The notes beneath the pieces were generated by a model that did not search any database, had not been told where the DNA came from, and saw only the letters and a list, made by a program, of their open reading frames with translations. Below are positions 1,380 through 46,911 of a stretch of DNA of 64,000 bases, piece by piece. Position 1 is the stretch's first letter. The number at the start of each line of letters is the position of its first letter. Source of the DNA: Alphaproteobacteria bacterium. Its GTDB lineage: Bacteria; Pseudomonadota; Alphaproteobacteria; RF32; CAG-239. The stretch lies in contig JAFTWG010000012.1 in assembly GCA_017465405.1 (NCBI GenBank), positions 3,692 through 67,691 on the forward strand, read 5' to 3'. Both the position numbers and the translations under genes were made by a program.

Positions 1380-2462
1380 ATGATGTTTTTGCGACTGTTT
1401 TTATTAACAATTTTAGGAAAAATAATGACACAAAACAAAGATTTGATATCAGCCTATCATACTATTGATAAGGAAATTGAAGCTTTGAATATGATGAAAT
1501 CAGAGCTTGATGCGTCTTTAACCGCAGCATTGGATTTAATGCAATCAGCAAAAGGTCGTGTTATCGTTACGGGTATGGGCAAGTCCGGTCATATCGGCAA
1601 AAAAATTGCCGCTACCATGGCTTCAACCGGCACTCCTTCTTTCTTTGTACACCCTGCAGAAGCCAGTCATGGTGACTTAGGTATGTTAACCGGCGATGAC
1701 GTTGTGTTAGCTATTTCAAACGGCGGAGAATCAAAAGAATTGTCTGATATTCTCATTTATTGCAAAAGATATGGAATTCCTTTGATTTCAATGACAAAAA
1801 ATCCTAACAGCACATTAGGCAAAGCCGGCGATATTTTATTAAGATTACCAAATGACGGCGAAGCTTGTCCTTTAGGACTTGCTCCGACATCATCAACAAC
1901 CGCAACCTTGGTTTTAGGTGACGTTTTGGCAATTGCTTTGCTTGAACGCAAAGGCTTTTCGGTTAATGATTACAAACAACGTCATCCGGGCGGAAAATTA
2001 GGTGCTATCCTACAAAAAGTTTCCGATTTAATGCACACCGGCGATGATATTCCTTTGATTGATGAAAATGCAGGAATGCGTCAAATTATTACAACCATGT
2101 CTTCAAAGATGCTCGGTTGTGTCGGAATTATTGACAAAGACGGCAACTTAACAGGTATGATTACTGATGGTGACTTACGTCGTGCAATGGTAAATTCTAC
2201 TGATGATGAATTGTTTACTCGTACAGCAACTCAAATTATGACCAAAAACCCGAAAGTTACATCTGCAGATGTATTGGTTGCTGAAGTTGTAAACTTTATG
2301 AACAGCAAAAGCATTACACAGTTGTTTGTTGTTGAGGATCAAAAACCTATCGGTGTAATTCACTTACACGACTGTTTGCGTGCCGGTTTTACAGTTGGTG
2401 AAAAAGATGAAGCATCTGCCAACGCTAATACTAACGTATATAACCTTCGTAAAGTGGCATAA
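1380..2462 (+). CDS. kdsD: arabinose-5-phosphate isomerase KdsD/KpsF (SIS + tandem CBS domains). True start more likely the ATG at 1425 (MTQNKDL)
   Basis: SIS motif GMGKSGHIGKKIAATMASTGTPSFFVHPAEASHGDLGML and a C-terminal CBS pair. Conserved position upstream of the lpt genes. Confidence 0.9.
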   Translation: MMFLRLFLLTILGKIMTQNKDLISAYHTIDKEIEALNMMKSELDASLTAALDLMQSAKGRVIVTGMGKSGHIGKKIAATMASTGTPSFFVHPAEASHGDLGMLTGDDVVLAISNGGESKELSDILIYCKRYGIPLISMTKNPNSTLGKAGDILLRLPNDGEACPLGLAPTSSTTATLVLGDVLAIALLERKGFSVNDYKQRHPGGKLGAILQKVSDLMHTGDDIPLIDENAGMRQIITTMSSKMLGCVGIIDKDGNLTGMITDGDLRRAMVNSTDDELFTRTATQIMTKNPKVTSADVLVAEVVNFMNSKSITQLFVVEDQKPIGVIHLHDCLRAGFTVGEKDEASANANTNVYNLRKVA

Positions 2463-2466
2463 TTAG

Positions 2467-3648
2467 GTGTTTGATTTAAAACAATTAGATAATCTTTTTA
2501 ATGACGATAGCCTAAAAAAACAAATTAGTGCTAATGAGGCGGTTTTGCAAAAGCAACGAAAACGAATTCGAATTATAAAAATTTGTTTTCCAGCTATTGC
2601 AGCCGCCCTTATTGGTATATTGGCCGTTCTCCCGAATTTACAGGAAAGAGACGAATTTTCCATCCAAATTTCTAAACCCACAAGACAAGAGTTAGAAAAA
2701 TTACATATGGAAAATACGGTTTTATACGTTACCGACAAAGCAAATAGAGTCAATAGCTTTACTGCTGAAAATATTGATGAAACCGCCCCCGGTTCACAGT
2801 TGGTAAAATTTAAAAATCCGGTAGGAAAAATTCCTACATCGGATACCGAATGGCTTGATATTACAGCTCCAACCGGATTTTATAACCAAAAAACCAAACT
2901 CATTTCATTAAATGAAGATGTAAACATAAAACACAATAGCGGAACAGTCGGAAAAACCAGCGAAATGTTTTACGATTCTAACAAATCTCTGGCGTACGGA
3001 AGCAAACCCACCATAATTGAGGGAGATTCCGGCACGATAAATGCTCAAGGTTTCAAATATTACACCAACAAAGAACATATTATTTTTACCGGAAAAACCG
3101 AAATTCATACATCACCGACTTCATTCGGTGAAAAAACGGATATATATGCAGATAAAACTGTTGAATATTTCAAAACCGAACAAAAACTAATCGCCAAAGG
3201 TAATGCCATTGTTAAAAGAAGCGGTATGAATATCAATGGCGAAATTATAACCGCCGTATTTATAAAACAAAATGATAAAACACAAATAAATGATTTTACG
3301 GCTCAAGAAAATGTTTCGGTTGATAACAATAAAAATAAAGTATATTCAGACTATCTGAAAGCATTTTTTAAGTTATCCGAAAAGAAAGAAAACGTTATTG
3401 ACAGAATTGAAATGACAGGTAACGTAAAAACCAAAACCGCTGACGGAGAAGTATATGCAGACAAGGCAATATACTATCCCAACACAGGAAAAGTTGAACT
3501 TTTTGAAAATGTTGTTATTGTTAAAGACGGAAATAGAATGCAGGGAACTAAAGCTGAAACAAACCTTAATACAGGGGCAAGCAAAATTTTTGCCGGCAAG
3601 AAGAATCGGGTATCCGGTGTATTTTATGAAGGCAGTATAGAAAAATAA
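2467..3648 (+). CDS. OstA-family LPS export protein, LptC-like N-terminal membrane anchor plus extended LptA-like periplasmic domain (393 aa, possible LptC/LptA fusion)
   Basis: Single N-terminal TM ([18 protein letters not shown]), then a long beta-rich periplasmic region. It occupies the lptC/lptA slot between kdsD and lptB. Confidence 0.55.
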
Positions 3649-3665
3649 TACTTGGGAAAAACAAG

Positions 3666-4406
3666 ATGTTTGATAAAAAACAAAATTCTACTCTTGAAGT
3701 TTTTAATATCGGAAAAAAATATAAAAATCGTCCGGTATTGCGTAATGTTTCTTTACATGTAAAACGAGGCGAAGCTGTCGGACTACTCGGTCCTAACGGA
3801 GCCGGAAAAACAACTTGTTTTTATTGTGTAACCGGTCTCATTACTCCTGATTATGGCGATGTACACATTGACGGACAGGATATTACAACTTTGCCTATGT
3901 ATCGTCGTGCACAAATGGGTATCGGCTATCTTCCGCAAGAGGCGTCTATTTTCAGAAGCTTGAGTGTAGAAGATAATATTAAGGCAATTTTGGAAATTGT
4001 TATTGATAACGAAGATAAAAGAGAAAATATGCTTGAAGAATTGTTATCAGAATTTTCAATTTCACACTTAAGAAAATCTCCTGCAATGGCTTTATCCGGC
4101 GGTGAGCGTCGCCGTTTGGAAATTGCAAGAGCTTTGGCAAGTCAACCCAATTTCATTCTGCTTGATGAACCCTTGGCCGGAATTGACCCTATTGCCGTAG
4201 GAGAAATCAGAAATTTGGTCTCACAGCTCAAACACCGAGGCTTGGGGGTATTAATTACTGACCATAACGTCAGAGAAACCCTTGATATTACTGACAGAGC
4301 ATATATTTTACATGGTGGTACGGTTCTAATGGAAGGAACTCCGGAAGAAATTGTTGCCAACGAAGAAGTACGCAGAGTATATCTCGGCGATAATTTTTCT
4401 ATGTAA
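3666..4406 (+). CDS. lptB: LPS export ABC transporter ATP-binding protein LptB
   Basis: Walker [10 protein letters not shown], signature [15 protein letters not shown], Walker B ILLDEP. Position after lptC/A. Confidence 0.85.
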
Positions 4407-4514
4407 TTTAACTTTTTTTTAAGTGTATTAGTCCAAAACTTGGCTTGTATTCTCTCAAAAATATGATACAATGAGAGTTCAAGGTTACAATTTATATTTT
4501 GCAAGGAAAAAATT

Positions 4515-5081
4515 ATGAAGATTACATTTACAGGTAAACAAGTTGATATCAGTGACAGATTGCGCACTCATATTGAAGGAAATGTTTTGAACGCAGTAAC
4601 AAAATATTTTAGTGACCCGATAGGTTGCAATGTTGCTTTCTCTAAAGAAGGTGAAGATTTTTCAGCTGAAGTTACCGTTCACCCTGCAAAAAACATCGTA
4701 TTAAAAGGTACAGGTAAAGGTAGCGATCCTTACACCGCTTTTGATGATGCTAATGCTCATATCGTTGTCAGATTAAGCAAACACAAAAATCGCTTAAAAG
4801 ATCATAAAAGCAAAATCGGTTTAGCTGAATTGGCAAGTGAAGCTGTTTTACCGATTATTGAAACAGAAGAAGAAATGGACGTTAACGTTGATGCTCCGTT
4901 GACTATTGCAGAAACAGGTGCAAATGTTCCGGTATGTTCTGTAAGCGAAGCTGTAATGTATATGGATTTGGCTAATGAATGTGCTTTGATGTTCAGAAAT
5001 GCTACAAACAATCGCATCAGTATGGTATATCGTCGCAAAGACGGTAACATCGGTTGGGTTGAACCGAAAGCAGACAAATAA
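4515..5081 (+). CDS. hpf: ribosome hibernation promoting factor, long form (188 aa)
   Basis: Sigma-54-modulation/RaiA-family N-domain plus a C-terminal dimerisation domain. Conserved neighbour of lptB and ptsN. Confidence 0.8.
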   Translation: MKITFTGKQVDISDRLRTHIEGNVLNAVTKYFSDPIGCNVAFSKEGEDFSAEVTVHPAKNIVLKGTGKGSDPYTAFDDANAHIVVRLSKHKNRLKDHKSKIGLAELASEAVLPIIETEEEMDVNVDAPLTIAETGANVPVCSVSEAVMYMDLANECALMFRNATNNRISMVYRRKDGNIGWVEPKADK

Positions 5082-5096
5082 TACAAGGTATTTTAT

Positions 5097-5540
5097 ATGA
5101 AAATTTCTGATATATTGAATATTGCAGACGTTATCACTTTGGATAAAATTTCATCTAAACGTGAACTTTTGCAAAATTTAACAACTCAAGCCGCTAAGAC
5201 TGCTAATGTTGACGGTCGTACCTTGTTTGATGTTGTTTTAGAACGTGAAAATTTAGGCACAACCGCTTTCGGAAAAGGAACAGCTCTTCCGCATGGACGT
5301 ATTCCTGAATTGAACAAAATTCAAACTGTATTTGCAAAGGTTAACGGCGGAGCTGATTTTGATGCTGCTGATGGTCAAAAAGTAGATTTAGTATTTATGC
5401 TACTATCTCCGGAGAATAGCGGTGCAGATCATTTGATGGCTTTGGCAGAAATGTCAAAACTGATTAAGAACGAAAATATATGTTCCCAATTACGAAAAGC
5501 AACAAACTCATCAGAAATATATAAAATTCTTACAGAATAA
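5097..5540 (+). CDS. ptsN: PTS EIIA (fructose/mannitol type, PtsN-like nitrogen-regulatory IIA)
   Basis: 147 aa with the phosphorylatable His in GTALPHGRI. Canonical position after hpf. Confidence 0.7.
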   Translation: MKISDILNIADVITLDKISSKRELLQNLTTQAAKTANVDGRTLFDVVLERENLGTTAFGKGTALPHGRIPELNKIQTVFAKVNGGADFDAADGQKVDLVFMLLSPENSGADHLMALAEMSKLIKNENICSQLRKATNSSEIYKILTE

Positions 5541-5575
5541 AAAAAACTCCGAACGACAGTTCGGAGTTTTTCTTT
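5541..5575. terminator. bidirectional rho-independent terminator between ptsN and the 326-aa minus-strand gene
   Basis: AAAAAA CTCCGAAC gaca GTTCGGAG TTTTTC. Perfect 8-bp stem flanked by an A-run and a T-run. Confidence 0.8.
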
Positions 5576-5589
5576 CAGAGGTAAATGCC

Positions 5590-6570
5590 TTAATCTTTTA
5601 ATACATTTACTTTTTCGTCACTGTATAGATTGAGCAAATCAACGACAAACCTTTCAGGTGTGGTCAATTCCTCATCCGTACGACGTTCCAAGTGCCATTT
5701 TTCGTGCAGTCTCCTAACTTTAAAGAAAACGACACTCCCCATTCCCAATTTTTTAAGTACGGGATAAGCATCGGTCAGCAGGTCATAAGTTTCTTTAGAA
5801 ACCCAATCATCAAGGAAAAGCCAGTTAATCAGGGTAACATTACCGGTAATGCTGGTCAAAACTTCACGGATGAAGTCAAAACACATTTGCTTTACCAACA
5901 ATGGTTTGTCCAGCTTGCTATCATAAATATGATATACAACCAAACTTTGTTCCTGAAGAATCTTCTGATTGTTCGAAAACTCGGTATCCAAAGCTATTTT
6001 CAACAACTCCAGAGGAATAGGTTTTTCATATTCCTGAAGATTGCGAAGATGCTTTAACACCTGTAACTGAAACAATCTGTCTTCATCAGCCCTGCGAGTC
6101 TTATCCTCTTCTTCTGCGACTTTGTTTTTCAACCCCTCCATATCAAAGTTTTTGATATATTCTACCGCATAACGATAAAACTCATCATACTTACGAAGGT
6201 AGTTCTTAACATAGTCCATAACCTGCCCCAAAATGCGACTTGGTCGGTGTCCTTTACTTTGTTGCAAATAGTTACGTCTCTCAGCCAAAGCTACAACTTT
6301 GTCCAGATTAACATCTTTCTCGTTGCGGATTTTGAGAACAAGCTGATACGCATAAGTTTCCGGATCAACTCGAAGATCGTTGATGTCTCTTGACATCTTC
6401 AGAAACCACTTGTCATACAACGCTTTTTCAAACTCCGCGAAAGGAGCCAACAAATCCAAAACGATATCCGTATCTTTCTCTAACTGAGAGAGAATAACCG
6501 CAACTTTTCTGGTTGCACGAGGCATTTTTGCATTAGCGATTTTTTCGCCTACTTCTTTTGATATTTCCAT
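5590..6570 (-). CDS. hypothetical protein, 326 aa, no recognisable domain. First gene of an atypical-composition trio
   Basis: Long clean ORF. By eye it has higher G+C and more C/G-ending codons than its flanks. Mostly helical, charged sequence with no motif I can name. Confidence 0.6.
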   Translation of the reverse strand: MEISKEVGEKIANAKMPRATRKVAVILSQLEKDTDIVLDLLAPFAEFEKALYDKWFLKMSRDINDLRVDPETYAYQLVLKIRNEKDVNLDKVVALAERRNYLQQSKGHRPSRILGQVMDYVKNYLRKYDEFYRYAVEYIKNFDMEGLKNKVAEEEDKTRRADEDRLFQLQVLKHLRNLQEYEKPIPLELLKIALDTEFSNNQKILQEQSLVVYHIYDSKLDKPLLVKQMCFDFIREVLTSITGNVTLINWLFLDDWVSKETYDLLTDAYPVLKKLGMGSVVFFKVRRLHEKWHLERRTDEELTTPERFVVDLLNLYSDEKVNVLKD

Positions 6571-6619
6571 AATAGTACTTGTTTAACTTTAGAAGTTTAA
6601 CATTTTTTCGAATTTTCGT

Positions 6620-6657
6620 CAACAAAAAGACGTTTCCCCCTATGGAGGAAACGTCTG
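6620..6657 (-). terminator. rho-independent terminator downstream of the 252-aa gene (minus strand)
   Basis: Minus strand reads GACGTTTCC-tccataggg-GGAAACGTC followed by TTTTTGTT. Confidence 0.7.
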
Positions 6658-6672
6658 ATAACAGATTTCTGA

Positions 6673-7431
6673 CTACCACTCTACATCATATCCGAATGTA
6701 TAGAGCAAAGTCTGAAAGTAGTACAACCTTCTGGCTCTTCTGCCTGCCTGCGAAGTCCTTTCAGGATCCTGCATTTCAAGCTTTCTGGCTAAAGCCAATC
6801 TCTCTTCCTCTTTTTTGAGGTGCTTGCGAATCTTGTTCACAAGCAGCGGCATCATCTCTCGGAATGCCTCAACCGGTGCATGCCTACCTGTATCCCCCTC
6901 GTGCTTAATCATAAGACGAATGGCATCCAGAGGCACAAAGTCACGATTCCAAAGCTGAATCCACATTGAAACTGATGGTTCTGCTCCTGCCTCATACCTT
7001 TTCTCCAAATATTTGAAACAGAATTTGGCGAGGTCATGGTCTTTTTCAGGATACTTCAGACCATCAATGAGAAGATTCTCTGTCTCAAGAGAGAAACCGG
7101 GAACTCCTTCATATCGAAGGATAAACTCCTTGAATTTTTCTCTTTCCTCTTCAGAGAGAGCTGCCTGCTCAAGGTTACGGTGAATAAGGTATTCGTGACG
7201 TCGATTGTAGATATAATTCCACAAATCCATCATTTCCTTTTTCACTGCATCCTTATCGCTGTCAGTAAGAAAGAACGGGATAACGTCTTCAATGTTCTCA
7301 CCCTCTTCTCTCTCCAAACTAACAGGATTTCTCTTTGCCTCTCTACGAGCAAACTCCTCAGGATGGCGTGCTTTCCACTGGTTGCGAAGTTCTTCAATCT
7401 GCTCCGCTGTCGGTTTAAACTTTTTCTTCAT
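6673..7431 (-). CDS. hypothetical protein, 252 aa, unknown function
   Basis: Clean ORF with the same atypical composition, followed by its own terminator. No motif recognised. Confidence 0.6.
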   Translation of the reverse strand: MKKKFKPTAEQIEELRNQWKARHPEEFARREAKRNPVSLEREEGENIEDVIPFFLTDSDKDAVKKEMMDLWNYIYNRRHEYLIHRNLEQAALSEEEREKFKEFILRYEGVPGFSLETENLLIDGLKYPEKDHDLAKFCFKYLEKRYEAGAEPSVSMWIQLWNRDFVPLDAIRLMIKHEGDTGRHAPVEAFREMMPLLVNKIRKHLKKEEERLALARKLEMQDPERTSQAGRRARRLYYFQTLLYTFGYDVEW

Positions 7432-7443
7432 CTGCTGTTGTTT

Positions 7444-7749
7444 TTACTTGTGTGACAAAAACTTGCTCTCGAAAGAACTGATTGCTTGCAACATTGTGCT
7501 GTTGTCTTTTGCACAGGCACGAGCTACCGCCACGAAGGTCTTGTAGGCGTCACGCGTTGTTGCATCGACGTGAGGCTTCTTGTTGTGGATGATGGCCTCG
7601 GCCTTGTACTTAATGATAGGTTTTCTGAAACCGCTCATACGCATATCCTCGGTTACTTCGTTTACTACCACGAGGATTTCCTCTACTGTTGCAGTCTTCA
7701 AGCTCTTCTTGAACTCGTTAGATGCCTTTTTAGCTTCTTCTTTTGTCAT
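7444..7749 (-). CDS. hypothetical protein, 101 aa. Start codon of the trio operon
   Basis: ORF 12 nt upstream of the 252-aa gene. It shares the atypical composition. Confidence 0.5.
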   Translation of the reverse strand: MTKEEAKKASNEFKKSLKTATVEEILVVVNEVTEDMRMSGFRKPIIKYKAEAIIHNKKPHVDATTRDAYKTFVAVARACAKDNSTMLQAISSFESKFLSHK

Positions 7750-7923
7750 TTTAAAAAAAGTTTTAAATTAATAATTATCTAAATGCTTAAATAGCTCTTT
7801 TTAATATAGACAAAAAACGGACATATTGCAAGTAAAAAATTTTATAAAAATTATAGATTTTTTGAACTTTTATAATTATTATTTCGTTTTAGAGGTATGA
7901 GTAAATTTTTATAGGATAAAAAA

Positions 7924-9069
7924 ATGATTAAAAAAATTGTTATAATCGCTACCATCGGTGCTATTGCTTGGTATGGATTTTCTTTTTATAAAAAGGATAA
8001 TACAAAAGATAGCTTTATAACTCACAAACTCTCTCGCGGAAACATCACCGAAATGGTTTCTGCTTCGGGAACAATTAATCCTATTTCAAGTATTGATGTC
8101 GGTACACAAGTTTCGGGGCGTATTCAAAAAATTTATGTCGATTATAACTCTATTGTAAAAAAAGACCAACTTTTAGCCGAAATTGATCCATCTTCTTTTG
8201 AATCAAATGTTGCAAAAGAAAAAGCTAATCTTGACGTTGCTAAAGCACAAGTTATGAGTGCTAAAGCTGCAAGAGACTATTATAAAAAACATCTCGCCAG
8301 AATAAGCAAGCTGAACAAACAAAACTACTCTGCCGATAAAGAACTTGATGAAGCACAGAGAGACTATGATACCGCCGTTGCAAATGTTGCTTTACACGAA
8401 GCTCAAGTTGAACAAGCACAAGCTGCTCTTGATTATAACAAAATTCAACTCGGTTATACCAAAATTATATCTCCGGTTGACGGCATTATCGTATCTAAAA
8501 GTGTAGAAGAAGGACAAACCGTTGCTGCAAGTTTTGAAACCCCTACCCTATTCAATGTTGCCGAAGATTTAACCAAAATGCAAATAGAAGCAACGGTTGT
8601 AGAAGCCGATATTTCAAAAGTTAAAGAAGGTCAAAAAGTTCTGTTTAATGTTGACAGTTTTCCAAACGAAACTTTTGAAGGAATTGTAACTCAGGTTCGC
8701 AATGAAGCGGTTACAACTTCCAATGTCGTAACCTATGAAGTAGTTATTTCAGTCAATAACTTGGAACATAAATTCAAACCCGGAATGACCGCTAACGTAG
8801 AAATCATTACGGCAAATGAAAAAGATATTTTAGTAGTGCCCAACAAAGCTCTACGTTTTTCAATGGGAGATGACATTCGTTATCAACAAAAAGGTGTATG
8901 GATTTTAAAAGACGGAAAACCGCAACGTATAAATGTTGTTGCCGGTGTTTATGATGATAACAATACCCAAATAACCAGTAATGAATTACACGAAGGAACG
9001 GAAATTATTGTTGAAAAAGCTGATACCGTTCAAAGAAGCGGTCGTAAAATGCCGATGAGGATGAGATAA
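7924..9069 (+). CDS. HlyD/MacA-family periplasmic adaptor (membrane fusion protein)
   Basis: N-terminal TM, coiled-coil region (ANLDVAKAQV...HEAQVEQAQAALDYNK) and a biotinyl-lipoyl-like beta-barrel. It precedes the ABC ATPase and permease. Confidence 0.8.
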   Translation: MIKKIVIIATIGAIAWYGFSFYKKDNTKDSFITHKLSRGNITEMVSASGTINPISSIDVGTQVSGRIQKIYVDYNSIVKKDQLLAEIDPSSFESNVAKEKANLDVAKAQVMSAKAARDYYKKHLARISKLNKQNYSADKELDEAQRDYDTAVANVALHEAQVEQAQAALDYNKIQLGYTKIISPVDGIIVSKSVEEGQTVAASFETPTLFNVAEDLTKMQIEATVVEADISKVKEGQKVLFNVDSFPNETFEGIVTQVRNEAVTTSNVVTYEVVISVNNLEHKFKPGMTANVEIITANEKDILVVPNKALRFSMGDDIRYQQKGVWILKDGKPQRINVVAGVYDDNNTQITSNELHEGTEIIVEKADTVQRSGRKMPMRMR

Positions 9070-9758
9070 TGTCATTAATAAAGCTCGAAAATATCAAAAA
9101 AAGTTACCCTCTGGGCGATGAAATGTTAGAAATATTAAAAGGTATTTCGTTAGAGATAAATGCCGGAGAATTTGTTGCAATTATGGGACCTTCCGGCTCA
9201 GGAAAATCGACATTGATGAATATTTTGGGCTGTCTTGATAAACCGACTTCCGGAAGATATTTTTTAGATAATAAAGAAGTAGGAACTCTGGAAAATGATG
9301 ATTTAGCAACTATTCGCAATCAGAAAATCGGCTTTGTTTTTCAAGGTTTTAATTTGCTCTCTCGCACCTCGGCACTTGAAAACGTCGAACTTCCGATGGT
9401 CTATGCAGGTGTTCCCGATTTTGAAAGACACAAAAAAGCAATTAAAGCTCTTAAAGCTGTTGGTCTGGAAAAACGTATGGACCATCAACCAAACCAATTA
9501 TCCGGTGGACAACAACAACGTGTTGCAATAGCACGAGCTCTCGTAAACGAAGCTCCGATTATTTTTGCAGATGAACCGACCGGAAATTTAGACACTAAAA
9601 CGAGTATTGAGGTTATGGAACTCTTCACAAAATTTAATAAAGAATTGGGAAGAACCATAATTTTGGTTACCCACGAAGAAGATATTGCGATGTATGCCGA
9701 TAGAATTATCAAAGTTGTTGACGGAGAAATTTTAAGCGATACGAGGAACAAAAAATGA
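9069..9758 (+). CDS. ABC transporter ATP-binding protein, MacB/LolD/FtsE-like
   Basis: Walker A GPSGSGKST, signature LSGGQQQRVAIARAL, Walker B IFADEPTGNLD. The ATGA start overlaps the adaptor's stop. Confidence 0.85.
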   Translation: MSLIKLENIKKSYPLGDEMLEILKGISLEINAGEFVAIMGPSGSGKSTLMNILGCLDKPTSGRYFLDNKEVGTLENDDLATIRNQKIGFVFQGFNLLSRTSALENVELPMVYAGVPDFERHKKAIKALKAVGLEKRMDHQPNQLSGGQQQRVAIARALVNEAPIIFADEPTGNLDTKTSIEVMELFTKFNKELGRTIILVTHEEDIAMYADRIIKVVDGEILSDTRNKK

Positions 9759-10984
9759 TAGAATTAAAAACCATAACCAGTATTGCAATACGAGCCATAA
9801 AAGCTAACAAAATGCGTTCATCACTGACCAGTTTAGGCATTATTATCGGTGTTGCAGCCGTAATCGTGATGTTAGCAATCGGAAACGGAGCTCAAGTTTC
9901 AATTCAAAAAGATATGAAAAGTATGGGTTCAAATTTAATGATGATTCGTTCAGGTTCTTCTACATCAAGCGGGGCTCGGGGCGGGCGTGGATCTCTTCCG
10001 ACAATGAAAGCCGGAGACGGAGATGCTATACAAGAAAAAATAAGTAAAATCAAATTAGCTGCACCGGTTTTAGAACAAACCAATCAAATTGTTTATGGCA
10101 ATGCTAACTGGGCAACATCTACAACCGGAACCGACAATCGATATTTTCAAATAAAAGAATGGGAACTCGATTATGGGCGTAATTTTTCCGAAAGTGATGT
10201 AAAAAATGCCGCAAAAGTTACTATTTTAGGAAAAACCGTAGTAACCGAACTTTTTGGCGATGTTGATCCTATCGGTAAAACAATTCGCATAAAAGGTATG
10301 CCGTTTACCGTCATCGGCGTCCTAGATAAACGTGGCGAAAACGGTATGGGACACGACCAAGATGACGTTGTTTTTATTCCTATTACTACTGCACAGAAAA
10401 AAATTATCGGAATTACCTTTCCCGATCAAGTAAATATGGTAATGTTGCAAGCTGTTGATAGCGAGGCCACCTATTCATCACAAGAAGAAATTACGCAGCT
10501 TTTAAGACAAAGACACAATTTAGGCGAAAATAAAGATAACGATTTTATCATTATGAATATGACCCAAATGCAAGAAATGATGGAAAGCTCAACCCAAATT
10601 ATGACAATTTTACTCGGCTCAATAGCTTCTATTTCTTTGCTTGTCGGCGGTATCGGAATTATGAACATAATGTTGGTATCAGTAACCGAACGCACCCGAG
10701 AAATCGGTATAAGAATGGCTATCGGAGCAAAAGCTTGGGATATCCGATGGCAGTTTTTAATGGAATCCATCGTATTGTCATTAATCGGTGGTTTAGCAGG
10801 AATCATAACCGGGTTGTTGGGTGTTCAGATTATGAAAACAATCACAACCTTTACCCTTATAATTGACTGGGCTTATGTTATAATTCCCTTTGTATTTTCA
10901 GGTATTGTCGGTGTGCTGTTCGGATTTTATCCGGCATATAAAGCTTCTCTCCTAAATCCGATTAATGCCTTAAGATATGAATAA
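9755..10984 (+). CDS. ABC transporter permease, FtsX/MacB-like, with large periplasmic domain
   Basis: 409 aa with an N-terminal TM, a periplasmic MacB_PCD-like region, and three C-terminal TMs with an FtsX-like signature. Confidence 0.8.
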   Translation: MIELKTITSIAIRAIKANKMRSSLTSLGIIIGVAAVIVMLAIGNGAQVSIQKDMKSMGSNLMMIRSGSSTSSGARGGRGSLPTMKAGDGDAIQEKISKIKLAAPVLEQTNQIVYGNANWATSTTGTDNRYFQIKEWELDYGRNFSESDVKNAAKVTILGKTVVTELFGDVDPIGKTIRIKGMPFTVIGVLDKRGENGMGHDQDDVVFIPITTAQKKIIGITFPDQVNMVMLQAVDSEATYSSQEEITQLLRQRHNLGENKDNDFIIMNMTQMQEMMESSTQIMTILLGSIASISLLVGGIGIMNIMLVSVTERTREIGIRMAIGAKAWDIRWQFLMESIVLSLIGGLAGIITGLLGVQIMKTITTFTLIIDWAYVIIPFVFSGIVGVLFGFYPAYKASLLNPINALRYE

Positions 10985-11011
10985 GTAATAATTACAAGCT
11001 CTCATAAAGCA

Positions 11012-11046
11012 CAAAAAAAGAGTCCGGCAGTGCCGGACTCTTTCAA
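11012..11046. terminator. bidirectional terminator after the macAB-like operon
   Basis: AAAAAAAG GAGTCCGGC agt GCCGGACTC TTTC. Confidence 0.8.
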
Positions 11047-11062
11047 AATATCTCTTGCGAGT

Positions 11063-11836
11063 TTAGTAGTTACGAGCTTTCTTATGGAAGACACCCTTAA
11101 CGTAGAATGTCAAGCCAACGAAAAATCTTTGGTCTTTGGAGTTTTTAATAGTCTCTCCATTGACTTTGAACTCGTGCTTTACGTCATATGTGTGAGCAGA
11201 AGCCTCAATACCCCATCTAACGGCCCCCATAAACTGACGGTGTTCATAACCGATTTTAAGTCCATAGGCCAAACCCATCGAAGTAGGTACTGAAGTTCCA
11301 TTGACGATAATGTGGTCATCTTCGTAGTTAAACTGCGAATCATTACGAGCTTCCTGCAAACCAACTTTAGCTCCAACGTAGAACTTATTAGTCTGTAATC
11401 CATTCTTACCCCACTTTGCTACTGCAATGCTAGGCTCAAAGAATGCATTAAAAGCTCCATAACGTTTGCCGGAAGCATCTGAAATCTGAGAGTAACCTGC
11501 GGTTACATCCCAGTCCATCAACTTGCCACTATATCCGAACACAACACCGAAGTTGTATCCGATAATAGATCCGGCTCCTTGACCGCAATCAAAGCCGCCA
11601 CCAACTTTACCGCCTAATGAGAAACCTTCTATGGTTTCTGCTTTCCAGACAATTGAGCTATCGGGAAGAATCATAACTAGCTCGTCATGTCTCATACCTC
11701 CAAGCTCTTCTATATATTCGAGTTTATAACTTTGGATATCGTTAGCTTTTGCAATCTGCTTTACCTCTTGGGCATTTGCAGCGAAAGCTGACACTACCAT
11801 TAATACACTCACGAAAATATTTCTTATATTTGCCAT
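11063..11836 (-). CDS. outer-membrane beta-barrel protein (OmpA-N/Opa-like 8-strand barrel family)
   Basis: Signal peptide MANIRNIFVSVLMVVSAFAANA|QE. Alternating amphipathic beta strands rich in G/Y/F. Confidence 0.55.
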   Translation of the reverse strand: MANIRNIFVSVLMVVSAFAANAQEVKQIAKANDIQSYKLEYIEELGGMRHDELVMILPDSSIVWKAETIEGFSLGGKVGGGFDCGQGAGSIIGYNFGVVFGYSGKLMDWDVTAGYSQISDASGKRYGAFNAFFEPSIAVAKWGKNGLQTNKFYVGAKVGLQEARNDSQFNYEDDHIIVNGTSVPTSMGLAYGLKIGYEHRQFMGAVRWGIEASAHTYDVKHEFKVNGETIKNSKDQRFFVGLTFYVKGVFHKKARNY

Positions 11837-11984
11837 TTTTGTAAGAATTTAAGTTATAAAAAATCTCCGCCGAGGTGCTTGTTGCACCTCGTGGGGAGAA
11901 TAGTTATTTTAAGATTAAACCTACTCCGGTCTTGCCGTTTCGGATAATAAGAGAGTACTTCCTAATGAACATAATGACAAAACA

Positions 11985-14219
11985 TTAACGCAGGCTCAAG
12001 CTTGAATCTGCAGTTGTCTTACCATTGTTCACAGCATACTTGATAGTAATGGTATTACCCTCAATCTTGTATGACTGTGCCTTAGGAGTAGGAGTAACGT
12101 CAACACCGATACCGAGAGAAATCGCATTGTTCTCCATTACGGTGTGATCCCAGCTAGCATTAGTACCTGCGTAGATCCAACGACCATTGCTGGTGATGAT
12201 CTTTGCAGGAGCCCACTTGCTACCGGTCCAAACACCGCTGTAAGAAGCGTTCTTTGCACACTTGCTTACACCGTTAGCTGATGCTACTGTCTGGTCGAAA
12301 GCATAGACAAGACTCATATCTACCTTACCGTTAGGAGCCATAACGACACCATTCTCGTAAGTAAACACGATCATATCCATGAAACGATCGCCAGTGTTCT
12401 TCTGTACGCGAGTGTACTTCGCTGATACAGGAGCACCCAGCCAATGAGGAGTTTCACGCTCTTCATCGTCAGAACCGCTTTCAATTTTTACCCACAACTC
12501 TGCAGGAGCCTCAGCAGATGCGTTGCGACCATTGAAGGTTGCAGACATCGTGTGAATATAGCTCTTGCGATTGTACTGGTTACCACCATCCTGAATCTTC
12601 GACATGTCAGACATGTTAAATCCGTTATCTGACACATTCTCATACTCCTTGTAGAGCATGTTGTGCTTCATAGGATTGTAAACAGCCTTCTCATAGCGAA
12701 GCGTAAAGCCTCTGTTGAACTTATTGTTGCCAACAGTGTAGTTACGCTCAAATGTCTGAATAGTGAAGTCACCAGTAGTATGGGTGTTAACCAAAGTCTC
12801 GTTGCCGAGTGAAGCGCCGTTCTGTGTCAGCTCAAAGTTGTCAACAATGCGAGTGATTGAAGCCGGAGCATCAATTGCATTCACAAGGTTAACAGACTTT
12901 GTATACTTCTTCTCACCAGATACACTCCAGATTTCAGTAATCTCGATCCATGTCTTTGAAGTGCTTTCATTGATATAGTCGATACCCTCATCTGTAATTG
13001 TTTTTGAGAGAAGCTCATCCTGCTCAGCAGTAACGCGGATTTCAGTTTCTGCAGCTGCATTTACGTTACGACCGTTGAAAGTCGCTGAAATGCTATGAGT
13101 ATTTAACATACGATCGTACTCGTAAGTTGAGCTCATATCAGTCATAGTGAAACCGTTATCTGCAATACCTTCAAAACATGCCTTAGGCATATCGAAAGTA
13201 TTATTACCATCTGACCAAACAGCAGTCTCGTGAGAAAGAACAAAAGTCTTTGTGAAGACATCGTTACCTACTACGAAATTCTGCACGTGCTGGCTGATGG
13301 TAAAGTTACCCTCAGTGCGAGTACCTGCCTTTGTCTCATCGCTCAAGCTAGAATTGATCTGATTAAGATCGAAGCTAGGAAGAACTTTGATATCGTATGC
13401 AGGAGAGTTAGCAGAGAAGTTAAGAATAACCTCGTACTTGCTAGTAACAGCACCGCTTACAGCGTATGTGCGTGTTACTTCAATCCAAGACTTAGCTGTT
13501 CCGGTACCATTCTCGAAAGAAATGATATCAAAACCCTCATTAGTCTTTGTGATTGAAATAAGCTCATCCGCAGCATTAGTTGCAAGTGTCATATAACCAA
13601 GCTCATTGCTCTTGTTACCCATGAAAGAAACTTCGTAAGTAGTAGTAGCAAGAGTATAGTTATAGTTCTTATCTGCACCATTGTCAGCAGTTGCCACATT
13701 GTTGTAAGCAACATTTCCATTAGCTGCAGGGAAATCACAACGCACTCCCCATACATAAGTATAAGCGTCCAAGTAGCTGATAGAACCAGTCTTGGTATAC
13801 TTATCGTATGCATCAACGAACTCACGAACTGATTTTGTGTAATAAACACCGCTCTCGTCGTAGTTTGTTGTCTTAGGAGCTGAGATTGTGAAATCTCTGT
13901 GCTCAACAGAGTTGTTTGCCACATAGATAGTGTCGTTCTTTGAAACCTCAAAACGAACACCACCGAGAGGAACTACCACTGTTGTGTCCTTTACGAAAGT
14001 ACCATCCTCGAACATTTCTGCTTTGATTGTACCGTTCTCACCATCGCGGGTGATAGTGGTTTTAATCTCGGTGTCAGTACCAGGTACTACCACGCCTCCA
14101 TTACCTTTTACGGTGTACTCGATTTCCTCCATGGTGTCATCACATGAAGTGAACGATACCATACTTACCATTGCCATGATAACAATGATTAAATTTCTAA
14201 AGATGTTTGCCTTTGCCAT
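11985..14219 (-). CDS. large surface lipoprotein (744 aa) with two internal ~180-aa repeats
   Basis: Lipobox ...VSFTSC followed by the acidic stretch DDTMEEIE, a Bacteroidetes-type lipoprotein export signal. Repeats end ...SATFNGRNVNAAAE and ...SATFNGRNASAEAP. By eye the gene has higher G+C and codon bias than its flanks. Confidence 0.65.
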   Translation of the reverse strand: MAKANIFRNLIIVIMAMVSMVSFTSCDDTMEEIEYTVKGNGGVVVPGTDTEIKTTITRDGENGTIKAEMFEDGTFVKDTTVVVPLGGVRFEVSKNDTIYVANNSVEHRDFTISAPKTTNYDESGVYYTKSVREFVDAYDKYTKTGSISYLDAYTYVWGVRCDFPAANGNVAYNNVATADNGADKNYNYTLATTTYEVSFMGNKSNELGYMTLATNAADELISITKTNEGFDIISFENGTGTAKSWIEVTRTYAVSGAVTSKYEVILNFSANSPAYDIKVLPSFDLNQINSSLSDETKAGTRTEGNFTISQHVQNFVVGNDVFTKTFVLSHETAVWSDGNNTFDMPKACFEGIADNGFTMTDMSSTYEYDRMLNTHSISATFNGRNVNAAAETEIRVTAEQDELLSKTITDEGIDYINESTSKTWIEITEIWSVSGEKKYTKSVNLVNAIDAPASITRIVDNFELTQNGASLGNETLVNTHTTGDFTIQTFERNYTVGNNKFNRGFTLRYEKAVYNPMKHNMLYKEYENVSDNGFNMSDMSKIQDGGNQYNRKSYIHTMSATFNGRNASAEAPAELWVKIESGSDDEERETPHWLGAPVSAKYTRVQKNTGDRFMDMIVFTYENGVVMAPNGKVDMSLVYAFDQTVASANGVSKCAKNASYSGVWTGSKWAPAKIITSNGRWIYAGTNASWDHTVMENNAISLGIGVDVTPTPKAQSYKIEGNTITIKYAVNNGKTTADSSLSLR

Positions 14220-14544
14220 AATTGTTATTGTTTTAAATTTATAATTCAGTGAAAAGCAATCCCTTACTCTTTAAAAAAACTATTTATAACTCTTTCATTA
14301 ATACAAAAAATGAAAAAGATTTTTCTAAAAATTAAGTCTCTAATTGAATAGAATAATTGCTTGTATTGTTAAAATAGCACATTTATTTTTTAATAGCAAC
14401 ATTTTTTTGCGAAAATTTACAAAAAAAATCATATAAAAATTAACTTTTTTATCCCCTAGTCTTTACGGGCTTTAATTTTCAAGGTTTTGGATATTTTTTA
14501 TTGTTTTTGTCTAAAAATTTTCAAATGGTTAAAATTTATGTTCA

Positions 14545-15183
14545 CTATAAAGCGTATTGTTTTTCGGCAGAAACCGTAAGTAATTCAAAATCTTCCAAAA
14601 ACCACTCCATTTCTTCATCGGCAATTTTTATCATTTCGTAAAATTTATTACGATATGACAATATCAGCGAACTTTCTCCTATTTTTATATCGGTAATTTT
14701 TATAGCATCTTTTACTTTGTGCATTCTAAACTCAACAACAAACTGCATCGGCTCCCCATGCTGATTTTGCTGATATTTTATATTTGCAGTTACAAAGACA
14801 TCTTTTTTTTCGCTTCGGCTTCCGGTTATGTCAAAGCTCAAGCGGTTTTCAAAAGTAAGAGGAAATCCTTTATAAACATTTATCGAATATCGTTTGAATA
14901 GCCCCATATATTGCGTACGTTGTTCCGGTGTCATTTGACGCCAATATTTACCGACTACGAATTTGCCGATATAGTCCAAATCAACATAATTTATAAACAT
15001 ATTATCAAGTTTTTGATATTTGGTCTCAATATCTTTTTCGGCAAAGAAAGACAACAAATTATTACCCTGTTCCAAAGCAAATTTTTCCGCTTCTTGCAAC
15101 GATAAGTCAGCAGACTTTACAGGTTGAGCAAATAACAATATTCCACAAAAAAGAATAAAATATAAAAAATAGTTACTTTTCAT
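14545..15183 (-). CDS. mlaC: MlaC/Ttg2D-family periplasmic phospholipid-binding protein
   Basis: Signal peptide, then the family motif DLDYIGKFVVGKYWRQMTPEQRTQY. Confidence 0.7.
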   Translation of the reverse strand: MKSNYFLYFILFCGILLFAQPVKSADLSLQEAEKFALEQGNNLLSFFAEKDIETKYQKLDNMFINYVDLDYIGKFVVGKYWRQMTPEQRTQYMGLFKRYSINVYKGFPLTFENRLSFDITGSRSEKKDVFVTANIKYQQNQHGEPMQFVVEFRMHKVKDAIKITDIKIGESSLILSYRNKFYEMIKIADEEMEWFLEDFELLTVSAEKQYAL

Positions 15184-15230
15184 AAAGAATTACCTTATAT
15201 ATTAATGTTATAGGACTAATCATAACATGA

Positions 15231-16271
15231 ATGGTAAAAAAAATGAAACTAAAATTGTGGTTATGCTGTTTTTTATTAACATTTTATAGCGGAACAGCTT
15301 TTGCATCAGCATCATCAGATGCCGGCTTATATTACATAAACAACAGAGGCGTTGTTCGTTGCGGAACCCCAAGCGACAACAAAATTTTTGCCTATAAAGA
15401 TGACGAAGGAAAATGGCAAGGTATTAGCCCGGAAATATGCCGCATTATCTCTACGGCAATTTTTGGACGCAGCGACAGAATTAAGATGGTTTTCGTTCCG
15501 GAAACCATGGTTTCAAAAGCTTTAAGCACCAACAAGATAGATGTTATGATTGGCGGAATGCCCTATTCTGCAACAAACGAATCATCAACCAAAGCTGCTC
15601 CCGTTGCCCCCATTTATTATGACCGTATGGTATTTTTAGCCAGAGATGCAGCTAAAGCAAAATCAATGAAAGATTTCCAAGGAGAGAAAGTTTGTATAGT
15701 TGATGATGTTGATGACTTAAGTCGTCTTAATGCTTTTAATGACAAACATCAGCTCAACTTCAAAATTATGAACTACAAACTATCAAGTCAAGCCAGAGAG
15801 TCGTTCTTATTAAAACGTTGTCGTTTATTTGCCGGTAATGCGATGTTGTTACAAGATATGCTTATCAACACTCCCAGTGGAATGAGCGGTGTTGAAATGC
15901 TACCGGAAACTATTGATACCCGCCCGTTTTATTTGTATACCGACAAAGCCAATACTACATTACGCAGTGCACTAAAATGGATTATCAATGCTACCAAATT
16001 GGCTGAAGAAGTCGGATTAACTCAAGAAAATTATACGATGAATCTGACAACAAAAGATCCGTCTATGCGAAACCTTTTGGGAATCGATGAAAAATTATGG
16101 AGTCGTTTCAAATTAGAACCGACTTGGGTTCAAACCTTATTAAAAGAACGTGGACACTACGGAGATATTTTTGAAAATACATTAGGCTCAAAGTCTCGCT
16201 TCAATCTAAAAAGGGGAAAAAACCATTTACTTAAAAATGGTGGTTTAATGTTCCACGAACAATTTTTATAG
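15231..16271 (+). CDS. periplasmic solute-binding protein, family 3-like
   Basis: Signal peptide plus a two-lobed SBP_bac_3-like sequence. No ABC partner genes adjacent. Confidence 0.45.
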   Translation: MVKKMKLKLWLCCFLLTFYSGTAFASASSDAGLYYINNRGVVRCGTPSDNKIFAYKDDEGKWQGISPEICRIISTAIFGRSDRIKMVFVPETMVSKALSTNKIDVMIGGMPYSATNESSTKAAPVAPIYYDRMVFLARDAAKAKSMKDFQGEKVCIVDDVDDLSRLNAFNDKHQLNFKIMNYKLSSQARESFLLKRCRLFAGNAMLLQDMLINTPSGMSGVEMLPETIDTRPFYLYTDKANTTLRSALKWIINATKLAEEVGLTQENYTMNLTTKDPSMRNLLGIDEKLWSRFKLEPTWVQTLLKERGHYGDIFENTLGSKSRFNLKRGKNHLLKNGGLMFHEQFL

Positions 16272-19377: not shown

Positions 19378-19428
19378 TTGCATAAAAATTAATTATAATA
19401 TAAAATAGACAAAAATGAGGAACAAAAT

Positions 19429-21562: not shown

Positions 21563-21744
21563 AAAAATTTTATATTGAATTTTATAAAAATTTTGTCTAT
21601 AATGAATCCATATTTAAATTATGTTGGATACTATTGTGCGTTGTTCGTTTTGTTTTGGTTTTATGACCATTGCTTTTCGTTATCGTATTAACAGTGGTCC
21701 GACAAATAGAAAACTTTTTTATTAACTTATAAATTCAAAACATT

Positions 21745-22368
21745 ATGAAAATCGGAAAAATTAACGTGAACGTTAAAGTAGGTGATGTAACTGCAGAGAA
21801 TGTGGATTGTATCGTAGTACCCCAGTTTAGAAGCGAGGCTTCGTATGGTGGTGTCGGTCGTTCAATCTATGGCGCCGGAATGCGTAGAGGACTTGAGCTC
21901 TATGACGACATTGTCAATGCAAATCCAATCAATTACGGAGATGCAGTCATTACAGAATCAGGACGAGACGGTGTATGGCTTGCCCATGTTGCAACTGCCG
22001 GTGCTAATAAAGACACGCTCTTCAAGGCGGTTTTCCAAGCAGTTTTCAATGCCCTTAAGGTTGCAAGAGCCAAAGGTGTTAAGTCGATTGCTATTCCCGA
22101 GTTAGGAACCGGCGTCATCGGCTCGCTGACACAGGAACAGTCGGCTAAAGCTATCCTCGGCGCCGTAGTGCACTTTACCAGCATTTTTGAGAATGCCGGC
22201 ATTGAAAACATCACTGTCTGCGTATTCCGTGGCTCAACTGCTCCGGCTGAGAAAGTCCTCACCCGTATTTCGGAGATGGATATAAACCTCTTCGAGAAAG
22301 GCGAGAAAGAGTTTGACTTCGAAGCTTGGGCGGTAGAGATGTGCTTGAATGCATCCATGAATCAGTAA
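21745..22368 (+). CDS. macro-domain (ADP-ribose-binding/processing) protein
   Basis: VDCIVVPQF...GGVGRSIYGAG resembles the macro-domain core (D-x-IVNAAN...GGGV..AI). The gene is visibly GC-rich (~50% by eye) relative to the ~33% flanks. Confidence 0.5.
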   Translation: MKIGKINVNVKVGDVTAENVDCIVVPQFRSEASYGGVGRSIYGAGMRRGLELYDDIVNANPINYGDAVITESGRDGVWLAHVATAGANKDTLFKAVFQAVFNALKVARAKGVKSIAIPELGTGVIGSLTQEQSAKAILGAVVHFTSIFENAGIENITVCVFRGSTAPAEKVLTRISEMDINLFEKGEKEFDFEAWAVEMCLNASMNQ

Positions 22369-22388
22369 ACGGTTACGTAAGTTTTCAA

Positions 22389-22414
22389 AGAGAGGCCAAG
22401 CCTCTCTTTTTTTA
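22389..22414 (+). terminator. terminator after the macro-domain gene
   Basis: AGAGAGG-ccaagc-CCTCTCT followed by TTTTTTT. Confidence 0.75.
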
Positions 22415-22484
22415 TTTATTGTCAAACAGCAAAAAATATGTTATATAAAACTCCTATTTCAAATTATTCTAAACTTATTAGCCT

Positions 22485-22955
22485 ATGAAAAAAATTATCG
22501 ATTTGCTACAAGCAAAAGATTATGAAACGGCAAAAAAAGTTGCTAAAGAGCGAAAAATCAAGAGAAGTATAGTTCACGAAAATCAGCTTCTTAATATGAT
22601 TAAGCATTGCTCTCTGATTTCACCCGAAGCAGAGATTATTCGTATTCTCAGCTACCGCAAACTTTTTTGCCATGATTATAGTCAAGAAGTAGAAGTAATT
22701 GAACAATTTGCAATTACTATGCACAACTGGAAACAGGTTCAATCTCTTATCAGAGAATATCCTCTTTCCTTTAATGCGCTATTTTTGTTTATCTGCAAAG
22801 TGTATCACAATGTGAACAACAAAAAGGCCATGGAAACATTTTTCCTCTACAACGAGCTTTATGACTTCAACAAGGTTGTGTGGCCGGAAGTTTATAAAGA
22901 ACTCTGTCAGGAGATTGTTGCACAAATTGCAATTAAGCACAGTTTACGTAAGTAA
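22485..22955 (+). CDS. hypothetical protein, 156 aa
   Basis: Clean ORF followed by a terminator (GGCTCCC-tccaaat-GGGAGCC-ATTTTTT at 22961-22989). No motif recognised. Confidence 0.5.
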   Translation: MKKIIDLLQAKDYETAKKVAKERKIKRSIVHENQLLNMIKHCSLISPEAEIIRILSYRKLFCHDYSQEVEVIEQFAITMHNWKQVQSLIREYPLSFNALFLFICKVYHNVNNKKAMETFFLYNELYDFNKVVWPEVYKELCQEIVAQIAIKHSLRK

Positions 22956-46901: not shown

Positions 46902-46911
46902 TGTTTTCCTC

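Follow-up and report, generated by a model that had tools for sequence, protein, structure and literature searches.

A conserved three-gene cassette of unassigned protein families back-to-back with a predicted MacAB-type exporter operon in uncultured animal-gut Alphaproteobacteria

Divergent pairs formed by a regulator and an efflux operon are exemplified by the TetR-family regulators encoded beside efflux operons and by macRS, which lies beside macAB in Stenotrophomonas; conserved bidirectional gene pairs reportedly indicate, in general, co-regulation, often that of a regulator with its target. Also relevant are Translin/TRAX (C3PO), a pair of paralogous all-alpha nucleic-acid-binding proteins, and the Bacteroidetes, whose translation start regions are A-rich and independent of a Shine-Dalgarno (SD) sequence. 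The locus considered here is a cassette of three minus-strand genes, designated A, B and C, within a stretch of 64,000 nt (the window; positions 3,692-67,691 of contig JAFTWG010000012.1, assembly GCA_017465405.1) from an Alphaproteobacteria bacterium of the GTDB lineage RF32; CAG-239. Window coordinates are used throughout and labels such as L001 or L004 denote the loci or contigs of relatives that carry the cassette. Comparative data indicate that the cassette is probably ancient, vertically inherited and specific to a lineage of uncultured animal-gut Alphaproteobacteria, as opposed to being an insertion, and the explanation ranked first, with a tentative probability of about 0.4, is that it would constitute a cytoplasmic regulatory or accessory module co-controlled with a MacAB-type exporter. 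The features concerned are the following.

7749..7444, minus strand: gene A, 101 amino acids, first gene of the cassette
7431..6673, minus strand: gene B, open reading frame of 252 amino acids
6570..5590, minus strand: gene C, open reading frame of 326 amino acids
7924..10984, plus strand: divergent partner operon macA-ABC-macB (Pfam)
7803..7831, minus strand: promoter P_A, -35 TTGCAA (7831-7826), 17-nt spacer, -10 TATATT (7808-7803), from a consensus scan
7841..7888, macA/A intergenic region: 48-nt block AACGAAATAATAATTATAAAAGTTCAAAAAATCTATAATTTTTATAAA, near-identical in seven loci
6628..6656, minus strand: intrinsic terminator after B, 13-bp stem followed by a T-tract, -21.2 kcal/mol, z -4.7
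6594..6622, minus strand: promoter P_C, -35 TTGACG, 17-nt spacer, -10 TAAACT, with an upstream TG
5539..5574, both strands: bidirectional terminator common to C and ptsN, -21.9/-23.4 kcal/mol, z -4.7/-6.6, T-runs on both sides

The initial annotation had regarded these genes, which are indeed present at exactly the coordinates and with the lengths (101, 252 and 326 amino acids) that it gave, as a horizontally acquired module inserted between ptsN and the exporter operon; the insertion is contradicted by the comparison with relatives. In 16 species-level genomes and in many metagenome contigs the cassette is found at one and the same position, and the order of macA, then A, B and C, then ptsN or different genes is kept across relatives whose C proteins are from 97% to 27% identical. 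In the blastp synteny table the C identities (97/91/69/63/59/39/27%) run parallel to those of MacB (100/98/89/87/87/82/76%), the Spearman coefficient of C identity being 0.96 against MacB and 0.98 against LptB; this rank correlation indicates that the cassette diverged along with its flanks, at a pace three to six times faster than theirs. No direct repeat of ≥14 nt is found within 5000-8400 and neither a tRNA nor an integrase gene lies at the cassette edges, the only tRNA gene of the window being located at 43625-43700, 36 kb away. Likewise, no relatives were found in viral contigs (searched with the C-family alignment), in plasmid records (B and C) or in phage records (C). Among the traits of a genomic island, the cassette displays a deviating composition and lacks boundary marks, absence from close relatives and incongruent divergence, while the one demonstrably mobile element of the window, a prophage at ~54-64 kb, is AT-rich and endowed with strong SD sites, the opposite of what is seen in the trio. 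Thus, the fixed slot, the divergence that tracks the flanks, the lack of repeats, tRNA and integrase and the lack of a G+C excess at four-fold sites (see below), together with ratios of nonsynonymous to synonymous divergence (dN/dS) of 0.03-0.12, argue that the cassette was not inserted.

The order of the genes around the cassette is conserved as kpsF-lptC/A-lptB-hpf-ptsN / C-B-A / macA-ABC-macB / g257-g744 / mlaC. The operon on the divergent side is predicted to encode a tripartite exporter of the MacAB type, consisting of an HlyD adaptor (HlyD_D23, 3.5e-22), an ABC ATPase (9069-9758; ABC_tran, recorded for the orthologue of this ATPase) and a MacB_PCD/FtsX permease (MacB_PCD, 3e-50; FtsX, 1.5e-20; Pfam). 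The cassette is divergent from, and adjacent to, macA in the window and in L004-L007, L010-L013, L017-L019, L023-L025 and L029, and the same holds for L030, L032, L033, L035, L037, L070 and L071. The arrangement reaches far back: six of the seven deeply diverged lineages, defined as those whose C is ≤27% identical to that of the window or is recognised by the C profile alone (E 4e-35 to 3e-17), keep the cassette back-to-back with macA-ABC-macB, the seventh (L031) being the weakest homologue. The far flank in these lineages consists of ptsN, fmt(-def-nusB), PvlArgDC or topA; on the other side, past macB, the genes differ too. It is this persistence of the macA adjacency, while the other neighbours change, that suggests a control common to the cassette and the exporter.

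The three genes are real and are under purifying selection. In a collection of 5.8 billion proteins 22 relatives of C and 15 of B were found; for A, a word search of the same collection yielded three relatives, and orthologues at the same position are present in 15 loci. A profile of C, run against 1.84 billion representatives, retrieved 52 clusters, nearly all of them full-length (306-354 amino acids). The alignments contain 43 invariant columns for C, 37-54 for B (15-17 homologues) and eight for A (15 orthologues). With respect to the two closest genomes, dN/dS is 0.05-0.11 for A, 0.09-0.12 for B and 0.03-0.05 for C, a range (0.03-0.12) that is also that of KpsF, LptB, HPF, PtsN and MacA/B; the synonymous divergence (dS) of A is low (0.27-0.31). 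The named records that carry the cassette are all gut metagenome-assembled genomes (MAGs) labelled Alphaproteobacteria, Rhodospirillales or "uncultured Azospirillum", their sources being human, mouse and ruminant. One MAG labelled "Bacteroidaceae bacterium" (L008, CAVIWQ010000015.1) carries the cassette together with the ptsN-hpf-lptB-lptC/A-kpsF synteny at 72-98% identity, so that its assignment to the Bacteroidaceae is probably a binning error. Concerning the clade RF32 as such, only 16S survey papers were found in the literature.

Co-occurrence of the three genes, which had been put forward as a check, is not complete, B having been lost in L004 and L020 and A being absent in L025. Gene content varies also in other ways: in L029 the B-like protein is a 360-amino acid internal duplication and a 130-amino acid orphan precedes C, whereas the middle gene of L023 and L033 matches the C profile and not that of B, both genes of L033 matching the former. 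In L017-L019 the 7 kb lying between C and ptsN hold BrkB-SDR-GatCAB, the same housekeeping genes that are found downstream of the cassette in L001, which likewise speaks for vertical inheritance.

A calculation of G+C content and codon usage by gene confirms the impression, originally gained by eye, that the composition of the trio differs from that of the other genes of the window. The G+C fraction is 0.45, 0.44 and 0.39 in A, B and C, respectively, against 0.354 for the window, and that of third codon positions (GC3) is 0.578, 0.462 and 0.413, compared with 0.294±0.062 in the 63 remaining genes (z 4.6, 2.7 and 1.9; ranks 1, 3 and 7 among 66 genes). Compared with the other genes, the trio makes more use of GAG (0.48 vs 0.20), AAG (0.45 vs 0.18), CAG (0.75 vs 0.22), TTC (0.48 vs 0.20) and ATC (0.44 vs 0.19) and avoids ATA and TTA. 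However, the excess is present only at two-fold sites, where NNY codons tend to end in C rather than T (z 0.7-4.7) and NNR codons in G rather than A (z 1.3-3.3); at four-fold sites the G+C fraction of the trio (0.31-0.36 vs 0.30±0.07, z 0.1-0.8) follows the host. The lack of a four-fold excess speaks against a GC-richer donor, which should differ most at precisely these sites; the G+C excess of the trio is not a foreign signature and, more generally, an outlying GC3, taken alone, does not constitute evidence of horizontal transfer.

The codon usage does not correspond to that of strongly expressed genes either. The rpsL, rpsG, fusA and tuf genes, which the same 713,662-bp scaffold carries within 10 kb of the left end of the window, share with the trio the preference for NNC codons and the avoidance of ATA, but their choices are GAA (0.95), AAA (0.84), CAA (0.88), GGT (0.78), CGT (0.71) and GCT (0.57), whereas in the trio, besides the high GAG, AAG and CAG, GGT, CGT and GCT amount to 0.35, 0.31 and 0.27, with GGG at 0.24 and AGG at 0.14. 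This mismatch indicates that the trio is not adapted to the optimal codons of this genome, and high expression as the sole cause of the bias was rejected on the basis of the same comparison. Across relatives, the GC3 of the cassette stays at ~0.4-0.6 while that of the host ranges from 0.29 to 0.61 (regression slope 0.38), which places the cassette above the background in AT-rich hosts such as the present one and at or below the background in GC-richer hosts. Inasmuch as synonymous sites are saturated between cassette lineages, the stability of GC3 implies that the synonymous composition is under selection linked to how the genes are expressed.

If neither a foreign origin nor high expression accounts for this bias, what could the relevant feature of expression be? 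A, B and C have A/U-rich leaders without an SD sequence, the free energy of the anti-SD duplex of A being +1.7 kcal/mol, in a host of which about two thirds of the genes use SD. Within the window, nine of nine genes whose usage of NNG at two-fold codons is ≥0.33 lack an SD, while 44 of the 46 others possess one (Fisher p 8.6e-9); the corresponding anti-SD duplex energies are -0.4 kcal/mol or weaker for the nine, against a median of -5.5 kcal/mol for the other genes. Besides A, B and C, the nine comprise g257, g744, two orphans and one gene each with a Macro and an FHA domain; they sit at 5590-7749, 11063-14219, 21745-22955, 24944-25360 and 42755-43309, have A/T-rich leaders behind near-consensus TTGACA-type promoters and an ordinary four-fold G+C content, and most of them are without a Pfam match. 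The SD-less, very A/T-rich starts of the cassette are kept in six divergent genomes in which the flanking genes mostly have an SD. The SD-less genes stand apart as a class by their synonymous composition, which is near-constant across hosts of 35-50% G+C; this points to synonymous sites being selected in connection with how translation is initiated. One possibility is that, in an AT-rich genome, an unstructured A/U-rich leader that selects the start would need a less A/U-rich mRNA body.

Two members of this class, g257 (11063-11836) and g744 (11985-14219), are convergent to macB and look like envelope proteins, the former having a signal peptide and the latter a lipoprotein-like signal (...FTSC|DD); neither of them has a match in Pfam or a sequence match in the PDB. 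Both evolve fast (for g744, dN/dS 0.20 and 81-84% identity where MacB is 98-100% identical), and a 1090-amino acid paralogue takes the place of macAB beside the cassette in L014 and L022.

Transcription of the cassette had been attributed to a three-gene operon. The terminators and the promoter region described at the same time were recovered, namely a hairpin (5539-5574) folding on both strands at the boundary with ptsN, a hairpin (6628-6656) after the 252-amino acid gene and a long AT-rich region (7750-7923, ~28% G+C) that contains P_A (TTGCAA-17-TATATT); the single operon was not upheld. In fact, P_C begins within the T-tract of the terminator that follows B; this hairpin is kept in the relatives through compensatory changes, and the succession of the hairpin and TTTTTGTTTGACAAAA in the B-C spacer is kept as well, including in L004 despite its loss of B. 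A conserved terminator followed by a conserved promoter (TTGACr-17-TAAACT) separates A-B from C and would make of the trio two transcription units, P_A → A-B and P_C → C, between which read-through is possible. No variation is seen in the core of P_A (TTG...TTTTTGTCTAT) among 11 loci, L023 with its 27% identical C included. Further upstream, seven loci with C proteins of 59-97% identity possess the 48-nt block in almost unchanged form; within it lie an imperfect inverted repeat (7844-7855 / 7871-7882, 92% complementary) and, on the macA strand, a TATAAT, and the block is a candidate for a control region shared by the two divergent units.

The B-C spacer, ~100 bp in the window, measures ~0.5-1.9 kb in different samples among the human-gut metagenome contigs L043-L069, whose B genes are 35% identical to the query; in L043, the one contig inspected closely, it contains a tandem repeat of 163 bp and low-complexity tracts rich in CT. 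A search of the region against Rfam yielded no family, weak matches such as MicC falling on the terminator hairpin. The motif of the P_A -10 region, TTTTGTCTATAWT, has five matches in the window against 0.9 expected and lies upstream of the Macro gene, of mnmA and of an orphan, its positions being:

7803-7815, 19402-19414, 21591-21603, 27294-27306, 42629-42641: TTTTGTCTATAWT sites

Since it also precedes mnmA, it was rejected as a promoter motif of the SD-less class, and it is probably a promoter flavour typical of the clade.

As to the proteins, the description of the three products as unnameable stood up, no significant match being found in Pfam, NCBIfam, PHROGs or PADLOC and all matches in the first three libraries lying below the gathering or curated cut-offs. 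No recurrent family emerged from Pfam scans of 15, 17 and 37 family members, the longer C homologues contain no extra domains, and a significant match to an ordinary housekeeping family, which would have refuted the initial reading, was found for none of the three. Their description as helical, charged and cytoplasmic-looking is equally borne out by the helical models of B and C, by the 37% of charged residues of B, by the basic nature of A and by the lack of a transmembrane-like segment in all three.

A is a soluble, strongly basic protein (pI 9.4-10.2 across 15 orthologues) whose invariant residues are K14, L17, A20, V61, T65, R66, Y69 and F72. The best PDB matches of its profile are the C-terminal DNA-binding domain of sigma-54 and the winged-helix region of SKA1 (E 0.11-0.14, not significant), both alignments covering its invariant RKPxVNxxTRxAY segment. 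No relationship of A with B or C was detected by hhalign.

B is a soluble, all-alpha protein with Arg-rich motifs near the N terminus (LRxxWRxxxPEEAARR) and the C terminus (GRRARRLFFF). Its AlphaFold2 model (pLDDT 83.8, pTM 0.71) finds no fold neighbour in the PDB with Foldseek, the best E-value being 0.34 and the query-normalised TM-score ≤0.33. A match of B to "E8" (8fje) in the PDB profile search was discarded as spurious, the aligned sequence being an internal repeat. C, also soluble and all-alpha, is modelled with 16 helices, three of them of 29-37 residues (pLDDT 90.2, pTM ~0.7), and gives no match with E < 0.1 in either the PDB or BFVD (best ≥0.15; query-normalised TM-score ≤0.33). The structure search proposed initially has therefore produced confident models of B and C without PDB neighbours, and for C without BFVD neighbours either; the top Foldseek matches are designed repeats, armadillo/importin, CRM1 and C3PO. 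The best PDB sequence-profile match of C is bS21m (E 0.77), and the match of P0083 (2792 amino acids) to the C profile proved spurious, this being a DUF7623 repeat protein whose score derives from six identical 6-bit repeats.

B and C have in common a domain of ~70 residues (K..CF.FI ... LI..LF..DW.S.ET..LL; residues ~222-290 of C) and, judging from the hhalign comparison of their profiles (E 2e-4, probability 47%) and from the match of the middle gene of L023 and L033 to the C profile, are distant paralogues over this domain. Positions (near-)invariant in the broad C alignment are limited to E48, E163, L194 and S258, and the motifs GHRPSR and DPETYAY are confined to the closer relatives; the paucity of such residues and the limited spread of the two motifs argue for a scaffolding or binding function of C over an enzymatic one. 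Taken as a whole, the three families lie outside every library searched, so that the cassette is new only in the sense of not being assignable to a known kind of system.

How might such a module operate? A near-consensus promoter of the sigma-70 type would drive A-B up to the conserved hairpin terminator and a second promoter, overlapping the T-tract of the latter, would drive C up to the bidirectional terminator in common with ptsN, translation of the three mRNA regions presumably starting from the A/U-rich leaders without SD. The macA/A intergenic region would provide the shared control of cassette and exporter, A would be the likely nucleic-acid-binding component, and B and C may associate in a heteromeric complex acting as its partner.

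Several observations weigh against a module co-controlled with the exporter. None of the cassette proteins has a significant match to a DNA-binding or regulator family, and the 15 A orthologues match neither Sigma54_DBD nor a helix-turn-helix family in Pfam; three proteins totalling 679 amino acids behind near-consensus promoters would be unusual for the regulator of a pump. Furthermore, macAB is not adjacent to the cassette in L001-L003, L008/L009, L014 and L022, so that the adjacency is not obligatory and could represent plain inherited synteny. MacB-type transporters take their substrates from the periplasm, which makes a direct role of cytoplasmic proteins with the cargo unlikely, and an accessory role would have to be exerted on the ATPase. 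Finally, the absence of A in L025 and of B in L004 and L020 indicates that a strict three-part machine is not required.

The closest competitor, possible albeit somewhat less probable, is a clade-specific cytoplasmic housekeeping role unrelated to MacAB, for instance in the organization of the nucleoid, of RNA or of the cell cycle, the back-to-back promoters being merely hard to separate. A core-like, single-copy distribution under strong purifying selection, the basic nature of A, a pattern of residue conservation in C that favors a scaffold over an enzyme and the survival of the cassette without macAB in L001-L003, L014 and L022 would all suit such a role; yet the macA adjacency outlasts all other neighbours in at least six deep lineages, beyond what is usual for neutral synteny, and nothing positive points to a particular process. 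Doubtful, on the other hand, is a reading that goes further than co-control, in which the cassette would be an unrecognised cytoplasmic partner of MacB-type exporters and, at the same time, a member of a separately translated gene set: a small DNA- or RNA-binding protein and two paralogous proteins of new fold would sense or tune the pump, while the SD-less A/U-rich leaders and the G/C-ending two-fold codons would be kept by selection against the mutational bias, the expression of the set being possibly fixed at the level of translation through, for example, the supply of tRNAs for G-ending codons or the accessibility of the leader. Ranked below it, as unlikely, is the view that the products are very abundant structural or nucleoid-associated proteins whose codon usage reflects adaptation to high expression. 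The near-consensus, conserved promoters, the preference for C-ending two-fold codons and avoidance of ATA and TTA as in tuf, fusA, rpsG and rpsL, the decrease of the bias in the order A > B > C and the low dS of A would fit this view, which is countered by the lack in the trio of the choices (GAA, AAA, CAA, GGT, CGT, GCT) that characterize those very genes.

Lower still stands the proposal that the cassette and the other SD-less genes are an old layer derived from an SD-independent lineage, such as the Bacteroidetes, and retaining its expression signals. It would explain why nine of nine NNG-rich genes are SD-less with A-rich starts and mostly without a Pfam match, as well as the lipoprotein signal (...FTSC|DD) of g744 and two-fold codon ratios of the trio class that we take to be Bacteroides-like. 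But no homologue of A, B or C exists outside the clade among the 5.8 billion proteins (nor, for C, among the 1.84 billion representatives), the "Bacteroidaceae" contig L008 has alphaproteobacterial synteny, saturation of the synonymous sites should erase the signature of a donor unless it is selected, and four-fold G+C follows the host. Very improbable, finally, is a recently acquired islet encoding a novel anti-phage defence system. Atypical composition, proteins without assigned function that diverge fast over long timescales and the weak PADLOC match of A to AbiEi (E 0.022) would be compatible with it, and synteny largely refutes it: the location is fixed, the divergence is congruent with that of the flanks, dN/dS is low, repeats, tRNA and integrase are lacking, the neighbours are housekeeping genes, no viral, phage or plasmid relatives were found and the proteins are devoid of the enzymatic or NTPase domains that defence effectors usually have. 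In PADLOC-DB v2, B and C have no match and A has only that to AbiEi, of 12 bits. Of the initial proposal of a candidate defence or regulatory system, the regulatory half thus survives as a possible role; the defence half does not, since there is no PADLOC match below E 0.02 and no phage, viral or plasmid relative, and the expected defence-island context turned out to consist of housekeeping and envelope genes, with a distribution that is fixed across the clade and not patchy.

Against the closest relative, L011, dS is mosaic over 1380-16271, amounting to 0.08-0.2 in hpf, ptsN and macA-B, to 0.27-0.7 in the trio, kpsF, lptC/A, g257 and g744 and to 1.2 in mlaC, which suggests homologous recombination between related strains. 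The prophage-like block (~54000-64000) encodes a major head protein (PHROG E 2e-107), a tail fibre, a collar protein, an endolysin and an amidase. The tRNA-Lys(CTT) gene (43625-43700) adjoins the FHA gene and is followed by a very AT-rich segment (44200-49300) with duplicated gene pairs (44679-45443/46912-47796 and 47915-48328/48858-49307, the latter pair with identical upstream sequences); the region 43625-49300 is possibly a hotspot of integration. Left of the cassette, hpf and then ptsN come directly after lptB (3666-5081), rpoN, which in Proteobacteria usually sits between lptB and hpf, being absent from this slot here and in all the relatives examined.

The interest of the cassette lies in the fact that three conserved families of common animal- and human-gut Alphaproteobacteria have no sequence neighbour, and that two of them yield confident models without a fold neighbour; in addition, the exporter to which the cassette is tied sits among genes of envelope biogenesis (lpt, mla). 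Should the link be functional, it would reveal a novel mode of control or assistance for MacB-type pumps, with relevance to the export of antibiotics and toxins.

When set against the described systems, the cassette resembles genomic or defence islands in having a composition different from that of its flanks and uncharacterised proteins, and differs from them in the lack of mobility genes, att-like repeats, tRNA, patchy distribution, defence-family matches and four-fold G+C excess. With the Bacteroidetes it shares, together with six other genes of the window, A/T-rich starts devoid of anti-SD complementarity; unlike the Bacteroidetes, however, the host is alphaproteobacterial and mostly uses SD, the SD-less trait being that of a gene subset and coupled to a distinct codon usage. 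B and C recall Translin/TRAX as two paralogous all-alpha proteins of similar size, C3PO chains recurring in the Foldseek lists, but a relationship was rejected in view of TM-scores of 0.16-0.29, E ~1, root-mean-square deviations of 15-17 Å and the lack of sequence similarity, values like those of generic helical matches. A is comparable to the sigma-54 DNA-binding domain in being small, helical-looking and basic, in the alignment (E 0.11-0.14) of its RKP...V...TR.AY with ...KRKP...VARRTVAKY of Aquifex sigma-54 and in the empty rpoN slot of the host locus; on the other hand, the RpoN box ARRTVAKYR is not kept, A having TTRDAYKTF instead, A is a stand-alone protein of 101 amino acids, the match with the SKA1 winged helix is equally good and none of the 15 A orthologues matches Pfam Sigma54_DBD. 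As to the divergent regulator/efflux pairs, the cassette departs from them in having no TetR, MarR, LysR or two-component domains, in comprising 679 amino acids in two SD-less units with near-consensus promoters and in an adjacency that is not universal; like them, however, it stands back-to-back with an exporter operon across a short intergenic region endowed with conserved blocks, and this arrangement is preserved while the other neighbours change.

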